Source of the DNA: Escherichia coli
Lineage (GTDB): Bacteria; Pseudomonadota; Gammaproteobacteria; Enterobacterales; Enterobacteriaceae
Strand: one strand, 5' to 3'
Assembly: GCF_024700885.2 (NCBI RefSeq)
Contig: NZ_CP117014.1
DNA length: 64,000 nucleotides
The position numbers were made by a program, and so were the translations under genes. Shown here in pieces: positions 8,866-25,687 of this stretch; the stretch's first letter is position 1; the number at the start of each line of letters is the position of its first letter. The notes below the pieces were generated by a model, which searched no databases, had not been told where the DNA came from, and saw only the letters and a list, made by a program, of their open reading frames with translations.

Positions 8866-10386
8866 ATGACCACTATTACCAAAGAACGTATTGAATTGTT
8901 CATTAAAAATCCGCTTGAAAACGGGCTTACCCGTGGTGAACAAATGGAACTGGCACGGATTGCGCTGGCATCGCTGGAAGCAGATCCAGTTAAACGAGTT
9001 AACTCAGATCAGATGCGCCGAGTCTGCTTAGAAGCTAATCGCCATTTAGATAAATATGACGCGATGGCGAAAGAGGTAAATAAGTTGCTTGGACGCATCG
9101 CCCCGCCAGCGCCGGTAGTGCCGGAAGAAGCAACTCCGGAAAACGTAGAAATGCTCTCTGGCTATGTTTCCACGTACAAATTAACCGATAGCGAGCGCGA
9201 TATTGCTGCCGAAATATGGAACGCCTGCCGCACCGCCATGCTTCAGTCCGGAAACTTTCGGGAAAGCAAGAATTCGTCAACCAATAATTTTCGGGAAATC
9301 GCGGAAACGTCAACCAACTATCCGGTAATTCCTAGTGAGGTGTTGTCAGCAATCCTGAAGTTTGCCAGAGTTCGTGCCGATTTCGATGATTTTGACGGTG
9401 ACAGGCGAGGTATCGGTGATTGTCTGGATGAGGCCGAGCAAGAGCTTATCGTTACCATTAACAAATATGCCAGTCAGTTGGCAGCAGAACCGATAGCGAC
9501 TAATGACGTTCGAGAGCAAACAGCCGTTCCGCCAATACAGGCTGATGTCGCGCAAGCAATTGAAAATCTCAAGCAGAAGTTAGTGGAATGCAATCGCTAT
9601 AACTACTGCGCAGATGCAGTTAAAGGCGTAGAGGATGCCAGCCGCGTCTTGGCACTCCAAAATCAAAATATGTCAGCACCGGTAACGCCGGAGGCCATTG
9701 AAAACGCAATTGAATATATCCGCAGTATCGCTTTTCACATCGATGAAGACGATTACCACGGCAAGCATATTGCGTATTTCATGCGACAAGCATTGGCCTG
9801 GCTGGAAGGGCATTCATGCAGCGACGACAGGCTGGGTAAGGCCGACAATCAACCCGCATCTGGTAACCAGTCTGCCGAATCCAATCGCGGTAATGAGTGG
9901 ACCGGCAATCCTGATATTGATAACGCCATCATCATGCTCGACCGCATAGATACGGCGGAAAGTTGCGATGATGACCGTATTGAGGCCGTTAAGGCTGTGT
10001 TGCGTAGACTGGCAGGCAACTATCCGGATATTCCGGATAGTTCGGTGCCAGCGCCAGGAAAGGGCGTCACCGGTGAACGTATCCGCATTAAGCCGCATGT
10101 TTATCGCGAACTGGTTAACCGTCTCCACGATACAGCGATCAAGTGTGCTGGCACCCAGCAATTACGAGAAAGAATTAGCCGTGTTTTGGGCGACGTTATT
10201 ACACCAGATCATCATAAACAAGCCGAGAAAAGTGGCCTGGAAAGGTGTCGCCTTGAGGCGGCATTAAACATTAAGCCGGGGCATACGCTTGGCATTATTG
10301 ATGCACTATTGGTTCATAAGATGGCCAGGGCTTTATTGCCGCTGGTGGCTGAAAAGCATGAGGTGGACCATGCCAACGAAAGCTGA
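8866..10386 (+). CDS. Hypothetical 506-aa modular protein
   Basis: N-terminal module shared with 8180 ORF; C-terminal PHVYRELVNRLHDTAIKCAGTQQLRERI module shared with 1139-1750 protein; RBS AAGGAG. Confidence 0.45.
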   Translation: MTTITKERIELFIKNPLENGLTRGEQMELARIALASLEADPVKRVNSDQMRRVCLEANRHLDKYDAMAKEVNKLLGRIAPPAPVVPEEATPENVEMLSGYVSTYKLTDSERDIAAEIWNACRTAMLQSGNFRESKNSSTNNFREIAETSTNYPVIPSEVLSAILKFARVRADFDDFDGDRRGIGDCLDEAEQELIVTINKYASQLAAEPIATNDVREQTAVPPIQADVAQAIENLKQKLVECNRYNYCADAVKGVEDASRVLALQNQNMSAPVTPEAIENAIEYIRSIAFHIDEDDYHGKHIAYFMRQALAWLEGHSCSDDRLGKADNQPASGNQSAESNRGNEWTGNPDIDNAIIMLDRIDTAESCDDDRIEAVKAVLRRLAGNYPDIPDSSVPAPGKGVTGERIRIKPHVYRELVNRLHDTAIKCAGTQQLRERISRVLGDVITPDHHKQAEKSGLERCRLEAALNIKPGHTLGIIDALLVHKMARALLPLVAEKHEVDHANES

Positions 10387-10654
10387 ATTACAGGTGCGCG
10401 TAGATGAGCTTGAAAAAGAGAACGCGAGCCTCAAAAAAATGCTGTCGCGGGCGGAAAGGGAATTATCAGGCAAATTATTGCCAGAAGAACTGCCACCAGC
10501 AGATATACCTGATCGAGTGTCCTGGTGGATGAAGTATTTCCGTGCACCGTGGGAGGCGTTTTGGTGCTACGACCATCGCAGATGGTGTGATGAGCTTGAT
10601 AGCAGTTTCCCCTATTTTGCAGAAGGGAACTCTTGCCCTGAATGTAGGCGTTAA
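10370..10654 (+). CDS. Small Cys-motif protein (tandem paralog 1)
   Basis: Ends WCYDHRRWCDELDSSFPYFAEGNSCPECRR; paralogous to next ORF. Confidence 0.4.
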   Translation: MPTKAELQVRVDELEKENASLKKMLSRAERELSGKLLPEELPPADIPDRVSWWMKYFRAPWEAFWCYDHRRWCDELDSSFPYFAEGNSCPECRR

Positions 10655-10959
10655 TGATGACCGGCGAGCTTTATTTTAAAATGGCACGGGAGCGGCGTGT
10701 GCATCTGGATCGGATATTTCATCTCCAGAAGAGAGTAGAAGAACTGGAACGTCGTCTGAACTGTTATCCTGTTGATATGGTGTCTGCAATACCGCCGATT
10801 CCAATAGAAATGCAGATCCGCCTATGGATGGAAGAATATGGAATGCCGTGGGAGATATTTTTCTGCTTCGACCATAAACAGTGGGTAGATGAGCTGGATA
10901 ATAGTTTCCCATATTTCACAGAGAACACATGCCCAGTATGCAGGAAGAACGGAATATGA
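10654..10959 (+). CDS. Small Cys-motif protein (tandem paralog 2)
   Basis: Ends FCFDHKQWVDELDNSFPYFTENTCPVCRK. Confidence 0.4.
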   Translation: MMTGELYFKMARERRVHLDRIFHLQKRVEELERRLNCYPVDMVSAIPPIPIEMQIRLWMEEYGMPWEIFFCFDHKQWVDELDNSFPYFTENTCPVCRKNGI

Positions 10960-11480
10960 CAAAATTTGGAAAGCTGGAAGCTCATTTGCTAACTCGCAAC
11001 TACCGCCATGATATACACCCATATAGACAGTGGATCGATGAAAGCGAAGGAGTAGTTACATTCCCTCTCTACAGGTTTGATGGGATGTTGGCTGGGTATC
11101 AGACATATAGACCAGGTGCACCTAAGCAGCATAGCAATCCGAAGATGGCCCGGTATTTCACGCGATCACACGGCAGACAGTTACTTTGGGGAACCTATCT
11201 TCCTTTAAAAGATGGCCCAATATGGATAACTGAGTCTATTTTTAAGAGCGCAGCTGTACACAACGCGGGCGGCAATTCGTGGGCGCTGTTAGGTTCAACT
11301 TTCTCCGCAGGATTACGCCGTCAACTTGCGATGCTGCCGTATGACTTTCGCGTAATAGGTGACAATGATGCGGCTGGTGAATCACTTGTGAAGTCTTTCG
11401 GAAAAGGTTTTGTGGCCCCGGATCTTGACGAGCTACAACCACATGAAGTGTCTCATTTGATTTTTAGCCATAGCCAATAA
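10956..11480 (+). CDS. Stand-alone Toprim-domain protein
   Basis: ESIFKSAAVHNAG ... VIGDNDAAGE resembles the Toprim conserved Glu and DxD motifs; ATGA overlap with the previous stop. Confidence 0.45.
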   Translation: MTKFGKLEAHLLTRNYRHDIHPYRQWIDESEGVVTFPLYRFDGMLAGYQTYRPGAPKQHSNPKMARYFTRSHGRQLLWGTYLPLKDGPIWITESIFKSAAVHNAGGNSWALLGSTFSAGLRRQLAMLPYDFRVIGDNDAAGESLVKSFGKGFVAPDLDELQPHEVSHLIFSHSQ

Positions 11481-11690
11481 GCATCTCTCCCCTTTGAGGT
11501 CACAATTAGTGGCCTTAAACAATGTGTTTTCTACCTCGATTTAGCCTTTATTATCGTTTTGCATTTCTCTAATCCGGGCAACGAGGTTACGCTGATTCGT
11601 TGGTGATGAATAGTAGCAAAGCGCACAAAATCATCTGCGGTGGTTGATGTACGTAACGCGTTTGCACCAAATGTGTCTCTTTAATGTATA

Positions 11691-11706
11691 CTGTATAAAT
11701 GAACAG
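11691..11706 (+). promoter_or_regulatory. LexA (SOS) box upstream of humD
   Basis: CTGTATAAATGAACAG fits CTGT-N8-ACAG, 22 bp upstream of the humD ATG. Confidence 0.6.
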
Positions 11707-11727
11707 TATTATTGAGGTGAAAACGCT

Positions 11728-12117
11728 ATGGGCTTCCCTTCTCCTGCGGCGGACTATGTTGAAAGCCGAATTTCTCTTGATCAGCAACTAATCAGGCATC
11801 CATCAGCGACATACTTCATGCGGGCGGCAGACAGCCATCACCGTGAGGGAATATTGCAGGGTGCTTTGCTGGTGGTTGATTCTTCGCTTACTCCAGTTGA
11901 TGGTTCGCTGCTTGTGTGCGCTATGGAGGGAGAATATCGCGTAAAAAGATACCGGAAGTATCCGCGCCAGCACCTGGAGGATTTAAGCACCGGGAAGAAA
12001 GAGGCGTTACCAGTAGATGACGATGGTTACACGGGTAGTAATGCTGTTTTTGGTGTGATCACCCACATTATCAATGACGCCAGGGGCGGTGAATTTGATG
12101 ATAGTCCTGCTATATGA
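11728..12117 (+). CDS. humD: HumD (UmuD-prime homolog, S24 peptidase-like)
   Basis: 129 aa starting MGFPSPAADYVE; P1 synteny humD-phd-doc; LexA box upstream. Confidence 0.65.
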   Translation: MGFPSPAADYVESRISLDQQLIRHPSATYFMRAADSHHREGILQGALLVVDSSLTPVDGSLLVCAMEGEYRVKRYRKYPRQHLEDLSTGKKEALPVDDDGYTGSNAVFGVITHIINDARGGEFDDSPAI

Positions 12118-12251: not shown

Positions 12252-12674
12252 ATGAGTTCGTCTGCTTTTGTCACTGTTGTCACTGGAGTAAGCGTTTTTG
12301 TCCTAGGTCGACTCATCATCAAGGGGGTTGAGTCTTACATTTCATTCAAGGAACAGTTGGGGGAAATATCGCATCTGTTATTGTCTAACCAAGCAAAGCT
12401 ATCGAATCCCCGCTCTGACTTAAAACAAGAAATCATCCATGATTTGAAAGATGCGGCAGCACAGTTACGGGTGAAGTACGAACTATTACCTTTCTATATC
12501 AAAATGTTACACATCGGTTTTCGCCTTGTTCCATCAGAAACTGAAATTCGTAAAGCGGCGCAAGAATTGAATCTGATAGCCTCGATACATGATGGTAAAA
12601 CCGGAGAGCTGCCATATGAGCACATAGCCAAGATTGGATTACTGCTCAGAATTCCAACCACTTATTCTGCTTAA
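12252..12674 (+). CDS. Moron: membrane-anchored protein inserted between humD and phd
   Basis: N-terminal TM helix FVTVVTGVSVFVLGRLII; own TATAAT at 12226-12231; AT-richer than flanks; P1 has humD directly followed by phd. Confidence 0.5.
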   Translation: MSSSAFVTVVTGVSVFVLGRLIIKGVESYISFKEQLGEISHLLLSNQAKLSNPRSDLKQEIIHDLKDAAAQLRVKYELLPFYIKMLHIGFRLVPSETEIRKAAQELNLIASIHDGKTGELPYEHIAKIGLLLRIPTTYSA

Positions 12675-12782
12675 TCCCAGCAATTGCAAGACTGCATCTC
12701 GAGGATTTAAGGCACCAAGAAGTGGTATTCAGCATCATTAAAACCTATAATTGCGTACACATAACGAGCACACGAGGTGTTT

Positions 12783-13004
12783 ATGCAATCCATTAACTTC
12801 CGTACCGCGCGCGGCAACCTTTCTGAAGTGCTCAACAATGTTGAAGCCGGGGAAGAGGTTGAAATCACCCGCAGAGGCCGTGAGCCAGCAGTAATTGTCA
12901 GCAAGGCTACTTTTGAAGCCTACAAAAAAGCGGCGCTGGATGCCGAATTTGCATCCCTGTTTGACACCCTGGACTCCACCAACAAGGAACTGGTTAACCG
13001 ATAA
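12783..13004 (+). CDS. phd: Phd antitoxin
   Basis: [73 protein letters not shown] matches my memory of P1 Phd across the full length. Confidence 0.85.
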
Positions 13005-13384
13005 TGAGGCATATATCACCGGAAGAACTTATTGCGCTTCATGATGCGAATATAAGCCGCTACGGCGGCCTGCCGGGAATGTCAGATCCGGGTAGGGCAG
13101 AGGCCATTATCGGGAGAGTTCAGGCCAGAGTTGCCTACGAAGAGATCACCGACCTTTTCGAAGTCTCCGCCACCTACCTGGTGGCTACGGCGAGAGGGCA
13201 TATATTCAATGATGCCAATAAGCGTACCGCGCTAAACAGTGCGCTGCTATTTCTACGCCGTAACGGTATACAGGTATATGATGATCCCGTGCTGGTGGAG
13301 CTTGCAGTGGGGGCTGCAACTGGTGAAATCCCCGTATCTTCAGTAGCGAAAAAACTACGTGAACTATATGGTTCCAATATTTGA
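13004..13384 (+). CDS. doc: Doc toxin (Fic-fold kinase)
   Basis: 126 aa with [10 protein letters not shown] Fic-type motif; near-identical to recalled P1 Doc; ATGA overlap with phd. Confidence 0.85.
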
Positions 13385-24392: not shown

Positions 24393-24468
24393 TGGTGGCC
24401 CCTACCGGACTTGAACCGGTGACCGTGCGATTATGAGTCGCCCGCTCTAACCACTGAGCTAAAGGGCC
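24393..24468 (-). tRNA. tRNA with CAT anticodon, most like tRNA-Ile2 (lysidine, reads AUA)
   Basis: GGCCCTTTAGCTCAGTGGTTAGAGCGGGCGACTCATAATCGCACGGTCACCGGTTCAAGTCCGGTAGGGGCCACCA; cloverleaf folds; closely resembles E. coli ileX as recalled. Confidence 0.75.
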
Positions 24469-24897
24469 AGATTACTGTTAATTACGCTTACGCTTTTTGC
24501 CAGAACCGCGTAAGGCTTTTGCCGCTTGCTCTACCCCGTATGCAACCACCAGCAGAAACAATAATGTCCACTCCGGGTTTTTATCGGCAAACGCCCAAAA
24601 ATCCATCACTTGCAGCCACCTTTTAAGACAAAACGCCATTGCTGTTAGGTTGCGGTGCCGGGCGCCTCCCGGTGACGTTAACCAGTTAACAATTAACGCC
24701 GGATCACTTATGGATTCTCGTTACGCCAGTAAAAAGACCACCTTTACTGTTTTAACTGTTCCGCGTGCGCTTAGCCGCATTCACCGCAATGGTAAGAGCA
24801 TTTGGCTGACTGGGCGGCGATGACGCCTGTACGCATTTGGTGATCCGGTTCTGCTTCCGGCATTCGCTTAATTAGCCAAATACCCTTAATGTTGCAC

Positions 24898-24984
24898 TGG
24901 CGGAGAGTAATGGAATCGAACCATCATCGCTTGCGCAATGGGACGGTTTTCAAGACCGCTTGAGCACCATGCTCCCTACTCTCC
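24898..24984 (-). tRNA. tRNA-Ser (anticodon TGA) with long variable arm
   Basis: GGAGAGT...GGTCTTGAAAACC...GGTTCGATTCC...CTCTCCGCCA; 87 nt. Confidence 0.7.
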
Positions 24985-25438
24985 CGTTATTGTGGCGACC
25001 GGTGCTGATCTCCGGCTTGCGGTTATTTCAGACTCTCACGGGCGTTTAATTGCCCCGCCGAACAGCTCTTTTCCGCAATAGCTGCAATGTCTTTCGCGCA
25101 TCAGCCTGCGCATTCACCACAATGTTGAGAACACTGGTTGTCACGCTGCAACGCAACATTTATTCGTAGATTGGGATATGACCCCGTTACGCCAGTGTTC
25201 TCAACGTTGTAGTGCCGGTTACGGTTCCGGCCAGACCTCTTCCTCAACGGGGTGTTCTCCATACGGACTACCGTTTATTGGTCGTTCCTGCGGTTTATGT
25301 TGTGAAGCCAGATGCTTATCTTCTGGTTGCTTCAAAGAGCTGCACTTCATCACAACGGTAAGAGCATTTATGGCTCGCATCGCGGGAAAAAGCCCACGGT
25401 AGAGAGTCGAACTCTACAAATGCTCTTACCTGTTGTGT

Positions 25439-25514
25439 TGGTGCCGGTTAACGGGATCGAACCGCTGACCATTCGCTTACAAAGCGACTGCTCTACCAAC
25501 TGAGCTAAACCGGC
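25439..25514 (-). tRNA. tRNA-Thr (anticodon TGT)
   Basis: GCCGGTTTAGCTCAGTTGGTAGAGCAGTCGCTTTGTAAGCGA...GGTTCGATCCC...AACCGGCACCA. Confidence 0.7.
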
Positions 25515-25518
25515 AATT

Positions 25519-25605
25519 TGGTGGGGAGTGATGGAGTCGAACCACCCGAGTCGCAATGACAGTAGATTTACAGTCTACCCCGCTACCCCTACGGACTAAC
25601 TCCCC
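25519..25605 (-). tRNA. tRNA-Tyr (anticodon GTA) with long variable arm
   Basis: GGGGAGTTAGTCC...AGACTGTAAATCT...GGTTCGACTCC...CTCCCCACCA. Confidence 0.7.
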
Positions 25606-25610
25606 TAAAT

Positions 25611-25687
25611 TGGCGATGGTGGGTGGATTCGAACCACCTACCGAAAGCTTAGAAGGCTGCTGTTCTATCCTACTGAGCTACACCATC
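25611..25687 (-). tRNA. tRNA-Arg (anticodon TCT, reads AGA)
   Basis: GATGGTGTAGCTCAGTAGGATAGAACAGCAGCCTTCTAAGCTTT...GGTTCGAATCC...CACCATCGCCA; anticodon loop CTTCTAA like argU; stem slightly degenerate. Confidence 0.6.

Follow-up and report, generated by a model that had tools for sequence, protein, structure and literature searches.

A probable Rad-family (retron anti-defense) protein, with a predicted DnaG-type fold, in a P1/D6-like phage-plasmid of Escherichia coli

We analyzed a 64,000-nucleotide stretch of DNA from Escherichia coli (contig NZ_CP117014.1 of assembly GCF_024700885.2), which we will call the window. The window is a P1/D6-like phage-plasmid. On its + strand, at positions 10956..11480, it encodes a protein of 174 amino acids that databases label only as "toprim domain-containing protein," "DNA primase," or "hypothetical." An earlier, sequence-only reading of this DNA described the protein as a stand-alone Toprim-like core and suggested that it could be a primase fragment, the core of an OLD-type nuclease, or a decoy. 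We will call the gene rad-like. Given its homology to a characterized protein of phage T5, we propose that it is an intact gene of the Rad (retron anti-defense) family, and that it is probably an anti-defense gene rather than a broken primase. The sequence-only reading was right about the Toprim or primase ancestry of the protein, but none of its three functional guesses is the best fit.

Similarity to Rad of phage T5

Using tblastn, we found hits for the rad-like protein in T5-like phages with E values of ~1e-24 to 1e-30. In T5 itself (AY587007), the hit is T5p074 or ORF071, a protein of 172 amino acids that is 43% identical across residues 6-169 of the rad-like protein. BLASTP gives a similar value (43.1% identity over 167 amino acids). 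T5p074 lies in the tRNA region of T5 and is annotated as a "DNA primase-like protein." ORF071 was once called a primase for its TOPRIM domain and is now known as Rad; the anti-defense locus that contains Rad is absent from the related phage BF23 through a deletion of ~4 kb (PMC10644984).

The activity of Rad was described in a preprint (Azam et al. 2023; 10.1101/2023.03.15.532788). Viable derivatives of phages T5 and PhiSP15 (T5n and PhiSP15m) that have lost 8 kb of DNA, including rad, no longer grow on strains with retrons Ec67 and Ec78. The rad gene by itself restores growth, and it also counters retrons Ec83, Ec48, and Se72. In cells, Rad reduces the levels of multicopy single-stranded DNA (msDNA) as well as msr-msd RNA, while the mRNAs of the reverse transcriptase (RT) and the effector are unaffected. 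The substitutions R13E, P33T, I88T, D135H, and E156H reduce the activity of Rad. The preprint also reports that the Rad of Proteus phage Privateer is strongly active. Activity against retrons is known just for the Rads of T5 and PhiSP15 and for a small number of further homologs. It describes the tRNA cluster of T5 that holds rad as an anti-defense island, and loss of the region had no reported cost to T5 in hosts without defenses.

All five of the published mutant positions (R13, P33, I88, D135, and E156) match the residues of T5p074. Because of this match, and because ORF071 is stated to be Rad (PMC10644984), we conclude that T5p074 is Rad. In the rad-like protein, the five residues align to identical ones: R14, P37, I91, D138, and E159.

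Is 43% identity compatible with Rad activity? Privateer belongs to the Grimontviridae, which is a different virus family from that of T5 (taxonomy lookup). As a proxy for its Rad, we used the homolog P59 from Privateervirus. The identity between P59 and T5 Rad is 43%, so P59 is as distant from T5 Rad as the rad-like protein is. The rad-like protein also has the architecture of the Rad family: it is a single protein of 174 amino acids with no fused partner.

A complete primase-type RNA-polymerase domain

Standard domain searches do not recognize the protein. The 174-amino-acid sequence had no matches in Pfam-A or NCBIfam, even at E <= 1. This includes the Pfam Toprim families (PF13155, PF01751, PF13662, and PF13362), none of which matched at E <= 1, let alone reached the gathering threshold. 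A phmmer search of PDB with the single sequence found nothing. The sequence-only reading had held that the Toprim idea would fail if there was no hit to a Toprim hidden Markov model (HMM). In Pfam-A and NCBIfam there is indeed no hit, but the HMM criterion is too strict, because other lines of evidence override it. The protein matches PHROG 849 ("DNA primase") at 1.5e-53, across positions 145-333 of the 435 in the profile. A profile of the protein's family, built from 61 relatives, matches structures of the DnaG catalytic core at 2e-6 and T7 gp4 at 0.018. Pfam's Toprim_2 is matched by 25 of the 61 relatives (E <= 0.01), and the homolog from Kagunavirus is above its gathering threshold (24.0 versus 22.1). 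The predicted fold is unambiguous as well. Since so many relatives match Toprim_2, and one of them passes the threshold, the Toprim domain is present in the rad-like protein but is too divergent for the curated models. The Toprim assignment that we predict for the protein thus rests on PHROG 849, the family profile, and the fold.

An AlphaFold model of the rad-like protein, built from the alignment of the 61 relatives, is confident and compact (pLDDT 95.9 and pTM 0.90). When we compared this model to PDB using Foldseek, the best 36 matches were all DnaG-type primases. The model superposes on complete RNA-polymerase domains of the DnaG/T7 type over 148-164 residues. In contrast, structures with only a Toprim domain (RNase M5, small Toprim proteins, and topoisomerases) superpose over just ~80-90 residues. 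The difference implies that the rad-like protein is more than a Toprim core, and the model predicts a complete minimal RNA-polymerase domain of a primase, with an N-terminal subdomain as well as the Toprim. So, the sequence-only reading saw a Toprim core that is really there, but it missed that residues 1 to ~85 form a primase-specific N-terminal subdomain. It was correct that there is no partner domain. We found no zinc-binding domain in the rad-like protein, either with Pfam or in the model, and the sequence opens directly with the polymerase domain. Nor did we find a helicase or helicase-binding domain, and the C-terminus is just 15 residues beyond motif VI.

These features separate the rad-like protein from other proteins with Toprim domains. 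It shares the Toprim glutamate, the DxD motif, and the acidic residues of motif VI with DnaG-type primases (DnaG from E. coli or Aquifex aeolicus, T7 gp4, T4 gp61, and the N-terminal domain of Twinkle), as well as the basic/aromatic motif (R66-Y67) of the N-terminal subdomain. Unlike these primases, it has neither a zinc-binding domain nor a helicase or helicase-binding domain, it is roughly half as large as the DnaG core, and it has lysine instead of aspartate at the +4 position of motif IV; also, Rad is dispensable for the replication of T5. RNase M5 and the small stand-alone Toprim proteins (PDB 6tg6, 2i5r, and 2fcj) align over ~87-90 residues, which is the Toprim half only, and they have no counterpart of the other half of the rad-like protein, which is the primase N-terminal subdomain. 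The OLD family (P2 Old, GajA, AriB from PARIS, and the Toprim of retron Eco2) shares the Toprim catalytic module and a place in the arms race between phages and their hosts. Several Toprim nucleases of the OLD family cleave tRNA or other nucleic acids. However, OLD-family proteins come with ABC-ATPase or RT modules, either in the same chain or as a partner, and they act on the side of defense. The rad-like protein has no ATPase, and neither PADLOC nor the listed fold matches include OLD, Gabija, or PARIS; the sole match in PADLOC was a marginal one, to a DnaG-like defense-associated RT (DRT). An OLD-type nuclease core is therefore not what we found.

Conserved motifs and a relocated acidic residue

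The coordinates below are all on the + strand. The N-terminal primase-type subdomain corresponds to residues 1 to ~85 (10956..11210, with an approximate boundary) and contains the conserved residues R14, P37, G47, Y51, R66, and Y67. The Toprim subdomain corresponds to residues ~86-174 (11211..11477), based on profile alignments to the Toprims of E. coli DnaG and T7 gp4. Within it, motif IV is E93-S-I-F-K97 (11232..11246), which includes the catalytic glutamate of Toprim domains; motif V is D136-N-D138 (11361..11369), which is the DxD motif; and a motif VI-like segment is D156-L-D158-E159 (11421..11432). D138 and E159 correspond to D135 and E156 of Rad. The sequence-only reading had noticed a conserved glutamate and a DxD motif, and these can now be identified as E93 (in ITESIFK) and D136-N-D138 (in GDNDAAG).

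Using an exhaustive search, we found 344 clusters of homologs (at 50% identity) with E <= 1e-3, so a chance match is excluded. Nearly all of these relatives are 160-190 amino acids long. The gene is not rare: there are homologs in ~490 phage records, and it is present on ~50-60 sequenced plasmids, where it is intact and 94-99% conserved. From these comparisons, a stand-alone protein of ~165-190 amino acids is the normal full length for a large phage family. Given this conserved length and the complete minimal RNA-polymerase domain, the rad-like protein is not a primase fragment.

Among 138 members of the family, E93 is conserved in 137, D136 in 127, D138 in 128, and D156 in 122. R14, G47, Y51, R/K66, and G79 are conserved as well, and Y67 is invariant. 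The canonical form of motif IV (EGxxD, as in DnaG and T7) is not present in the rad-like protein: lysine replaces the aspartate, as it does in T5 Rad (ESVFK). Across the 138 members, the +4 position of this motif is aspartate in 72 and lysine in 51. The second group, or K-type, has E[GS]xFK together with D-x-D-E, and D158 is present in 49 of the 51. The first group, or D-type, has EGxFD together with D-x-G, and the glycine is present in 50 of the 72. The K-type proteins include the rad-like protein, T5 Rad, P59 from Privateervirus, and the homolog from Kagunavirus. The rad-like protein and the Rads of T5 and PhiSP15 also share their length, the two-subdomain architecture, and the K-type motifs (ES[IV]FK, GDND, and D-x-D-E).

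In other words, position 158 co-varies with position 97. From the alignment, it appears that an acidic residue was relocated between motifs IV and VI instead of being lost, so that the number of acidic residues is kept. This co-variation favors a metal center that has been maintained, and it disfavors a dead decoy.

Gene neighbors and fusions in relatives

We clustered the genes within 6 kb of 89 loci that encode homologs, from 18 lineages. We did not find a conserved partner gene: no family of neighbors is present in more than 4 of the 18 lineages, and just one family reaches 4.

In T5-like phages and in phages of 170-183 kb, the homolog is inside a tRNA cluster, with tRNA genes ~10-40 nucleotides away on either side. 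Conversely, about 30 of the 50 loci that we scanned have no tRNA within 10 kb. In Agricanvirus, the homolog adjoins RtcB, and in Vibrio phages F89 (g2) and F96 (~1999-2409), a tRNA nucleotidyltransferase is either joined to it or next to it. In Kagunavirus, the homolog follows and overlaps a SNF2 helicase gene within the replication module. A role as the replicative primase in phages of this type was considered, but it is weakened by the "replicative helicase-primase" that Kagunavirus encodes separately.

Some relatives from metagenomes are longer. They carry the head domain of a tRNA nucleotidyltransferase (P0093), a domain similar to HAD phosphatases (P0096), a DUF3268 zinc finger (P0107), or a cytidylyltransferase domain (P0161). 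Some of these fusions may be artifacts of gene calling in metagenomes.

In jumbo phages of Erwinia, Klebsiella, and Serratia, the Rad homolog is always split over two frames (at L005:2905-3517, and at ~9990-10500 in L053, L063, L066, L083, and L092). The +1 switch is at one place, at profile position ~78-82, just before the motif with the Toprim glutamate. The split may reflect programmed frameshifting, or a pseudogene that has been inherited.

The rad-like gene in its phage-plasmid

As the sequence-only reading had it, the open reading frame (ORF) runs from an ATG at 10956 to a stop codon at 11478-11480 and encodes 174 amino acids. An alternative in-frame ATG at 10929 would yield a protein of 183 amino acids. 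RefSeq uses the 174-amino-acid form (named "toprim domain-containing protein") on plasmids that are 99% identical at the DNA level, and homologs begin to align at residue ~5-7. In an ATGA (10956..10959), the start codon overlaps with the end of the ORF upstream (10654-10959, + strand), sharing bases with its stop codon. A terminator-like hairpin, which is a consensus match only, lies 13 nucleotides past the stop codon (11493..11519, + strand). Because of this overlap and this hairpin, we conclude that the rad-like gene is the final cistron of a long accessory operon on the + strand.

Upstream of the rad-like gene, and translationally coupled to it, are two tandem paralogous ORFs (10289-10654 and 10654-10959; phrog_3797) that are 43% identical to each other. 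Both have a coiled coil at the N-terminus and, at the C-terminus, the motif C-x-D-H...C-P-x-C, which is a possible zinc finger. We considered whether these ORFs might provide a zinc-binding domain in trans, but we rejected this: none of the other Rad-like loci has them, the upstream neighbor is different in PhiR41_1, and phage D6 carries one phrog_3797 ORF but lacks the rad-like gene.

The gene is 99.4% identical at the DNA level to its copy on the Salmonella plasmid pGMI14-002_2, where the gene order is the same. In the flanks, there are matches to phage D6 (at 96%) and to P1-group phages. Downstream of the rad-like gene, the order is a LexA box, humD, an ORF of 140 amino acids, and phd-doc. 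The near-consensus LexA box, TACTGTATAAATGAACAGTA, is at 11688-11707, which is ~20 nucleotides upstream of humD (UmuD'-like; 11728-12117); the humD of P1 likewise has an annotated LexA site upstream. The 140-amino-acid ORF (12252-12674) lies between humD and phd, where D6 has the similarly sized orf109. The Phd/Doc toxin-antitoxin pair is at 12777-13384, in the same arrangement as in P1.

Directly upstream of humD, P1 has hot (a homolog of the theta subunit) and lxr, and D6 has hot; here and in PhiR41_1, the rad-like gene is found instead, in the same slot, with the accessory operon on one side and the LexA-controlled humD on the other. The hot and lxr proteins are unrelated to the rad-like protein. 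This suggests that the slot is variable and that accessory cargo is swapped there, rather than one conserved function being kept. Other P1-like elements contain pieces of the gene. P7 (AF503408) keeps just the last ~137 nucleotides (window positions 11344-11480), and SJ46 (NC_031129, 78192-78389) has an unannotated fragment that corresponds to residues 109-174, with 85% identity. These remnants suggest that the rad-like gene was formerly in the slot and may since have partly decayed or been displaced. T5 differs in that it is a virulent phage whose rad is in a tRNA-rich anti-defense island, while the rad-like gene closes an accessory operon, beside humD-phd-doc, in a temperate phage-plasmid.

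We found the rad-like gene on 50 plasmids in PLSDB, all of which are predicted to be non-mobilizable and most of which are 92-128 kb. It is also present in 62 of 5,426 complete E. coli genomes, and it is plasmid-borne every time.

The window also encodes five tRNAs (Met-CAT, Ser-TGA, Thr-TGT, Tyr-GTA, and Arg-TCT; 24393-25687, - strand), 13 kb from the rad-like gene. A phage-borne tRNA-Tyr reportedly counters retron Ec78 in T5. The annotation of the closest complete plasmid also includes glnS (glutamine-tRNA ligase).

Alternative functions

Several points weigh against our proposal that the rad-like gene is an anti-defense gene of the Rad family. The function is predicted from homology, and 43% identity to T5 Rad could leave room for a different target specificity. 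The data for Rad are solely in an unreviewed preprint from 2023, its evidence for the loss of RNA is in vivo only (quantitative PCR and gels), and it reports that single point mutants have only "slightly reduced" activity (10.1101/2023.03.15.532788). We did not find "Rad" in the version that was published in 2024 (PMC11555353), and our search of the literature for later mechanistic work on Rad yielded only the preprint and papers that cite it. Also, one would expect some retrons to be triggered rather than silenced when their msDNA is destroyed. The predicted fold is that of a polymerase rather than a known nuclease, so that cleavage and synthesis would both be possible. Finally, the fusions or neighbors of some homologs (tRNA nucleotidyltransferase, HAD phosphatase, and RtcB) would fit with a broader role in RNA or tRNA metabolism.

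That last point is the basis for a minority view, which we consider rather improbable: the protein might be a broader RNA-processing or repair enzyme with, for instance, tRNAs or tRNA precursors as substrates, and T5 Rad would then counter retrons as one consequence of a general activity on RNA. Besides those fusions or neighbors (P0093 and Vibrio phages F89 and F96 for the nucleotidyltransferase, P0096, and Agricanvirus) and the cytidylyltransferase fusion (P0161), it would explain the location of homologs in the tRNA clusters of T5-like and 170-183 kb phages. It would also fit with the five tRNA genes in the window's element and glnS on the closest complete plasmid, and RNase M5 shows that a Toprim enzyme can cleave RNA. 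But most of the scanned loci have no tRNA nearby, the tRNAs in the window are 13 kb away, and some of the fusions may be artifacts. Since the T5 gene is Rad and lies within an anti-defense island, its location beside tRNAs needs no tRNA substrate, and T5 has no reported cost from losing the region. We doubt even more that the protein is an auxiliary DNA primase, which would prime the lytic or rolling-circle replication of the phage-plasmid with RNA, use a zinc-binding domain in trans (from host DnaG or from a phage protein), and be recruited by host DnaB. The fold and the catalytic motifs are those of DnaG and T7 primases, and both PHROG and many GenBank records label the family as "DNA primase." In both DnaG and T7 primase, the zinc-binding domain and the polymerase domain can work together in trans. 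A primase would also fit with the gene overlap in the replication module of Kagunavirus, with the zinc finger of P0107, and with hot, which is a replisome accessory gene, in the equivalent slot of P1. However, the rad-like protein lacks both the zinc-binding and the helicase-binding domain, and motif IV has lysine in place of aspartate. Potential partners are missing as well: there is no DUF3268 homolog in the window, the upstream ORFs with cysteines and histidines are unlinked in other lineages, no partner gene is conserved across the 18 lineages, and the annotation of the closest complete element lists no replicative helicase. Furthermore, Kagunavirus has its separate helicase-primase, the deletion mutants of T5 and PhiSP15 are viable (10.1101/2023.03.15.532788), and BF23 naturally lacks the gene (PMC10644984).

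We consider it very unlikely that the protein is a catalytically dead remnant or a decoy, such as a pseudogenized piece of a primase or a protein that sequesters a host factor or a defense sensor. This would account for the absence of matches in Pfam and NCBIfam, the lysine in motif IV, the truncated copies in P7 and SJ46, the short fragments among the relatives (P0005, P0008, P0011, and P0012), and the split homologs of jumbo phages. But full length is kept across the 344 clusters, E93, D136, D138, and D156 are each kept in 88-99% of the 138 family members, and the aspartate that was lost at position 97 is offset by the one that was gained at 158. Also, the AlphaFold model is confident and compact, and the gene is intact on dozens of plasmids. 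In T5 Rad, D135H (which alters the DxD motif) and E156H weaken the activity (10.1101/2023.03.15.532788). With its acidic residues strongly conserved, and two of them co-varying, the decoy that the sequence-only reading had suggested is unlikely.

The rad-like protein does not serve the phage-plasmid as its replicative primase. We conclude that this is not a replication gene because T5n and PhiSP15m are viable without rad, Kagunavirus has a separate helicase-primase, the homologs have no shared neighbor, and the slot is variable. Its distribution also argues against a replication gene: the rad-like gene is plasmid-borne in all 62 of the E. coli genomes that have it, and the family is often found inside phage tRNA clusters, which the preprint describes as an anti-defense island.

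Proposed mechanism

If the rad-like gene is an anti-defense gene, then the protein would be expressed with the accessory operon, upon infection or induction. By homology to T5 Rad, we predict that it acts as a single-subunit enzyme on the msr-msd non-coding RNA (ncRNA) of retrons or on the RNA-DNA hybrid molecule, msDNA. The N-terminal primase-type subdomain might bind structured RNA or single-stranded DNA. The acidic cluster of the Toprim (E93, D136, D138, D156, and D158) would perform metal-dependent phosphodiester chemistry. Given how these residues are conserved, and given the precedent of RNase M5, which is a Toprim enzyme that cleaves rRNA, the simplest such reaction would be cleavage. 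With less ncRNA or msDNA, abortive infection by the retron would fail to stop the phage.

A more speculative idea, and one that we would not bet on, is that a complete catalytic domain of a primase has been re-used against immunity that is based on RNA and DNA. The protein would then use primase-type chemistry or binding on msDNA or ncRNA, instead of being a simple RNase; the swap of K97 and D158 would mark the re-tooled site; and retrons might be silenced during lysogeny. If this is true, then silencing during lysogeny could change the immunity of the host to other phages.

Implications

We have assigned a gene of a phage-plasmid to Rad, which is a recently described and poorly characterized family of anti-defense proteins. 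Relative to the preprint, our structural model adds the prediction that Rad proteins are complete RNA-polymerase domains of the DnaG type and not merely Toprim "RNase" domains. The relocation of charge between K97 and D158 and the variable cargo slot upstream of humD are also new. The structural result and the relocated acidic residue narrow the question of how Rad removes the RNA and DNA of retrons. The link to Rad turns a gene with an uninformative label into one with a testable function. If that function is correct, then this P1/D6-like phage-plasmid carries a counter-defense gene against retrons.
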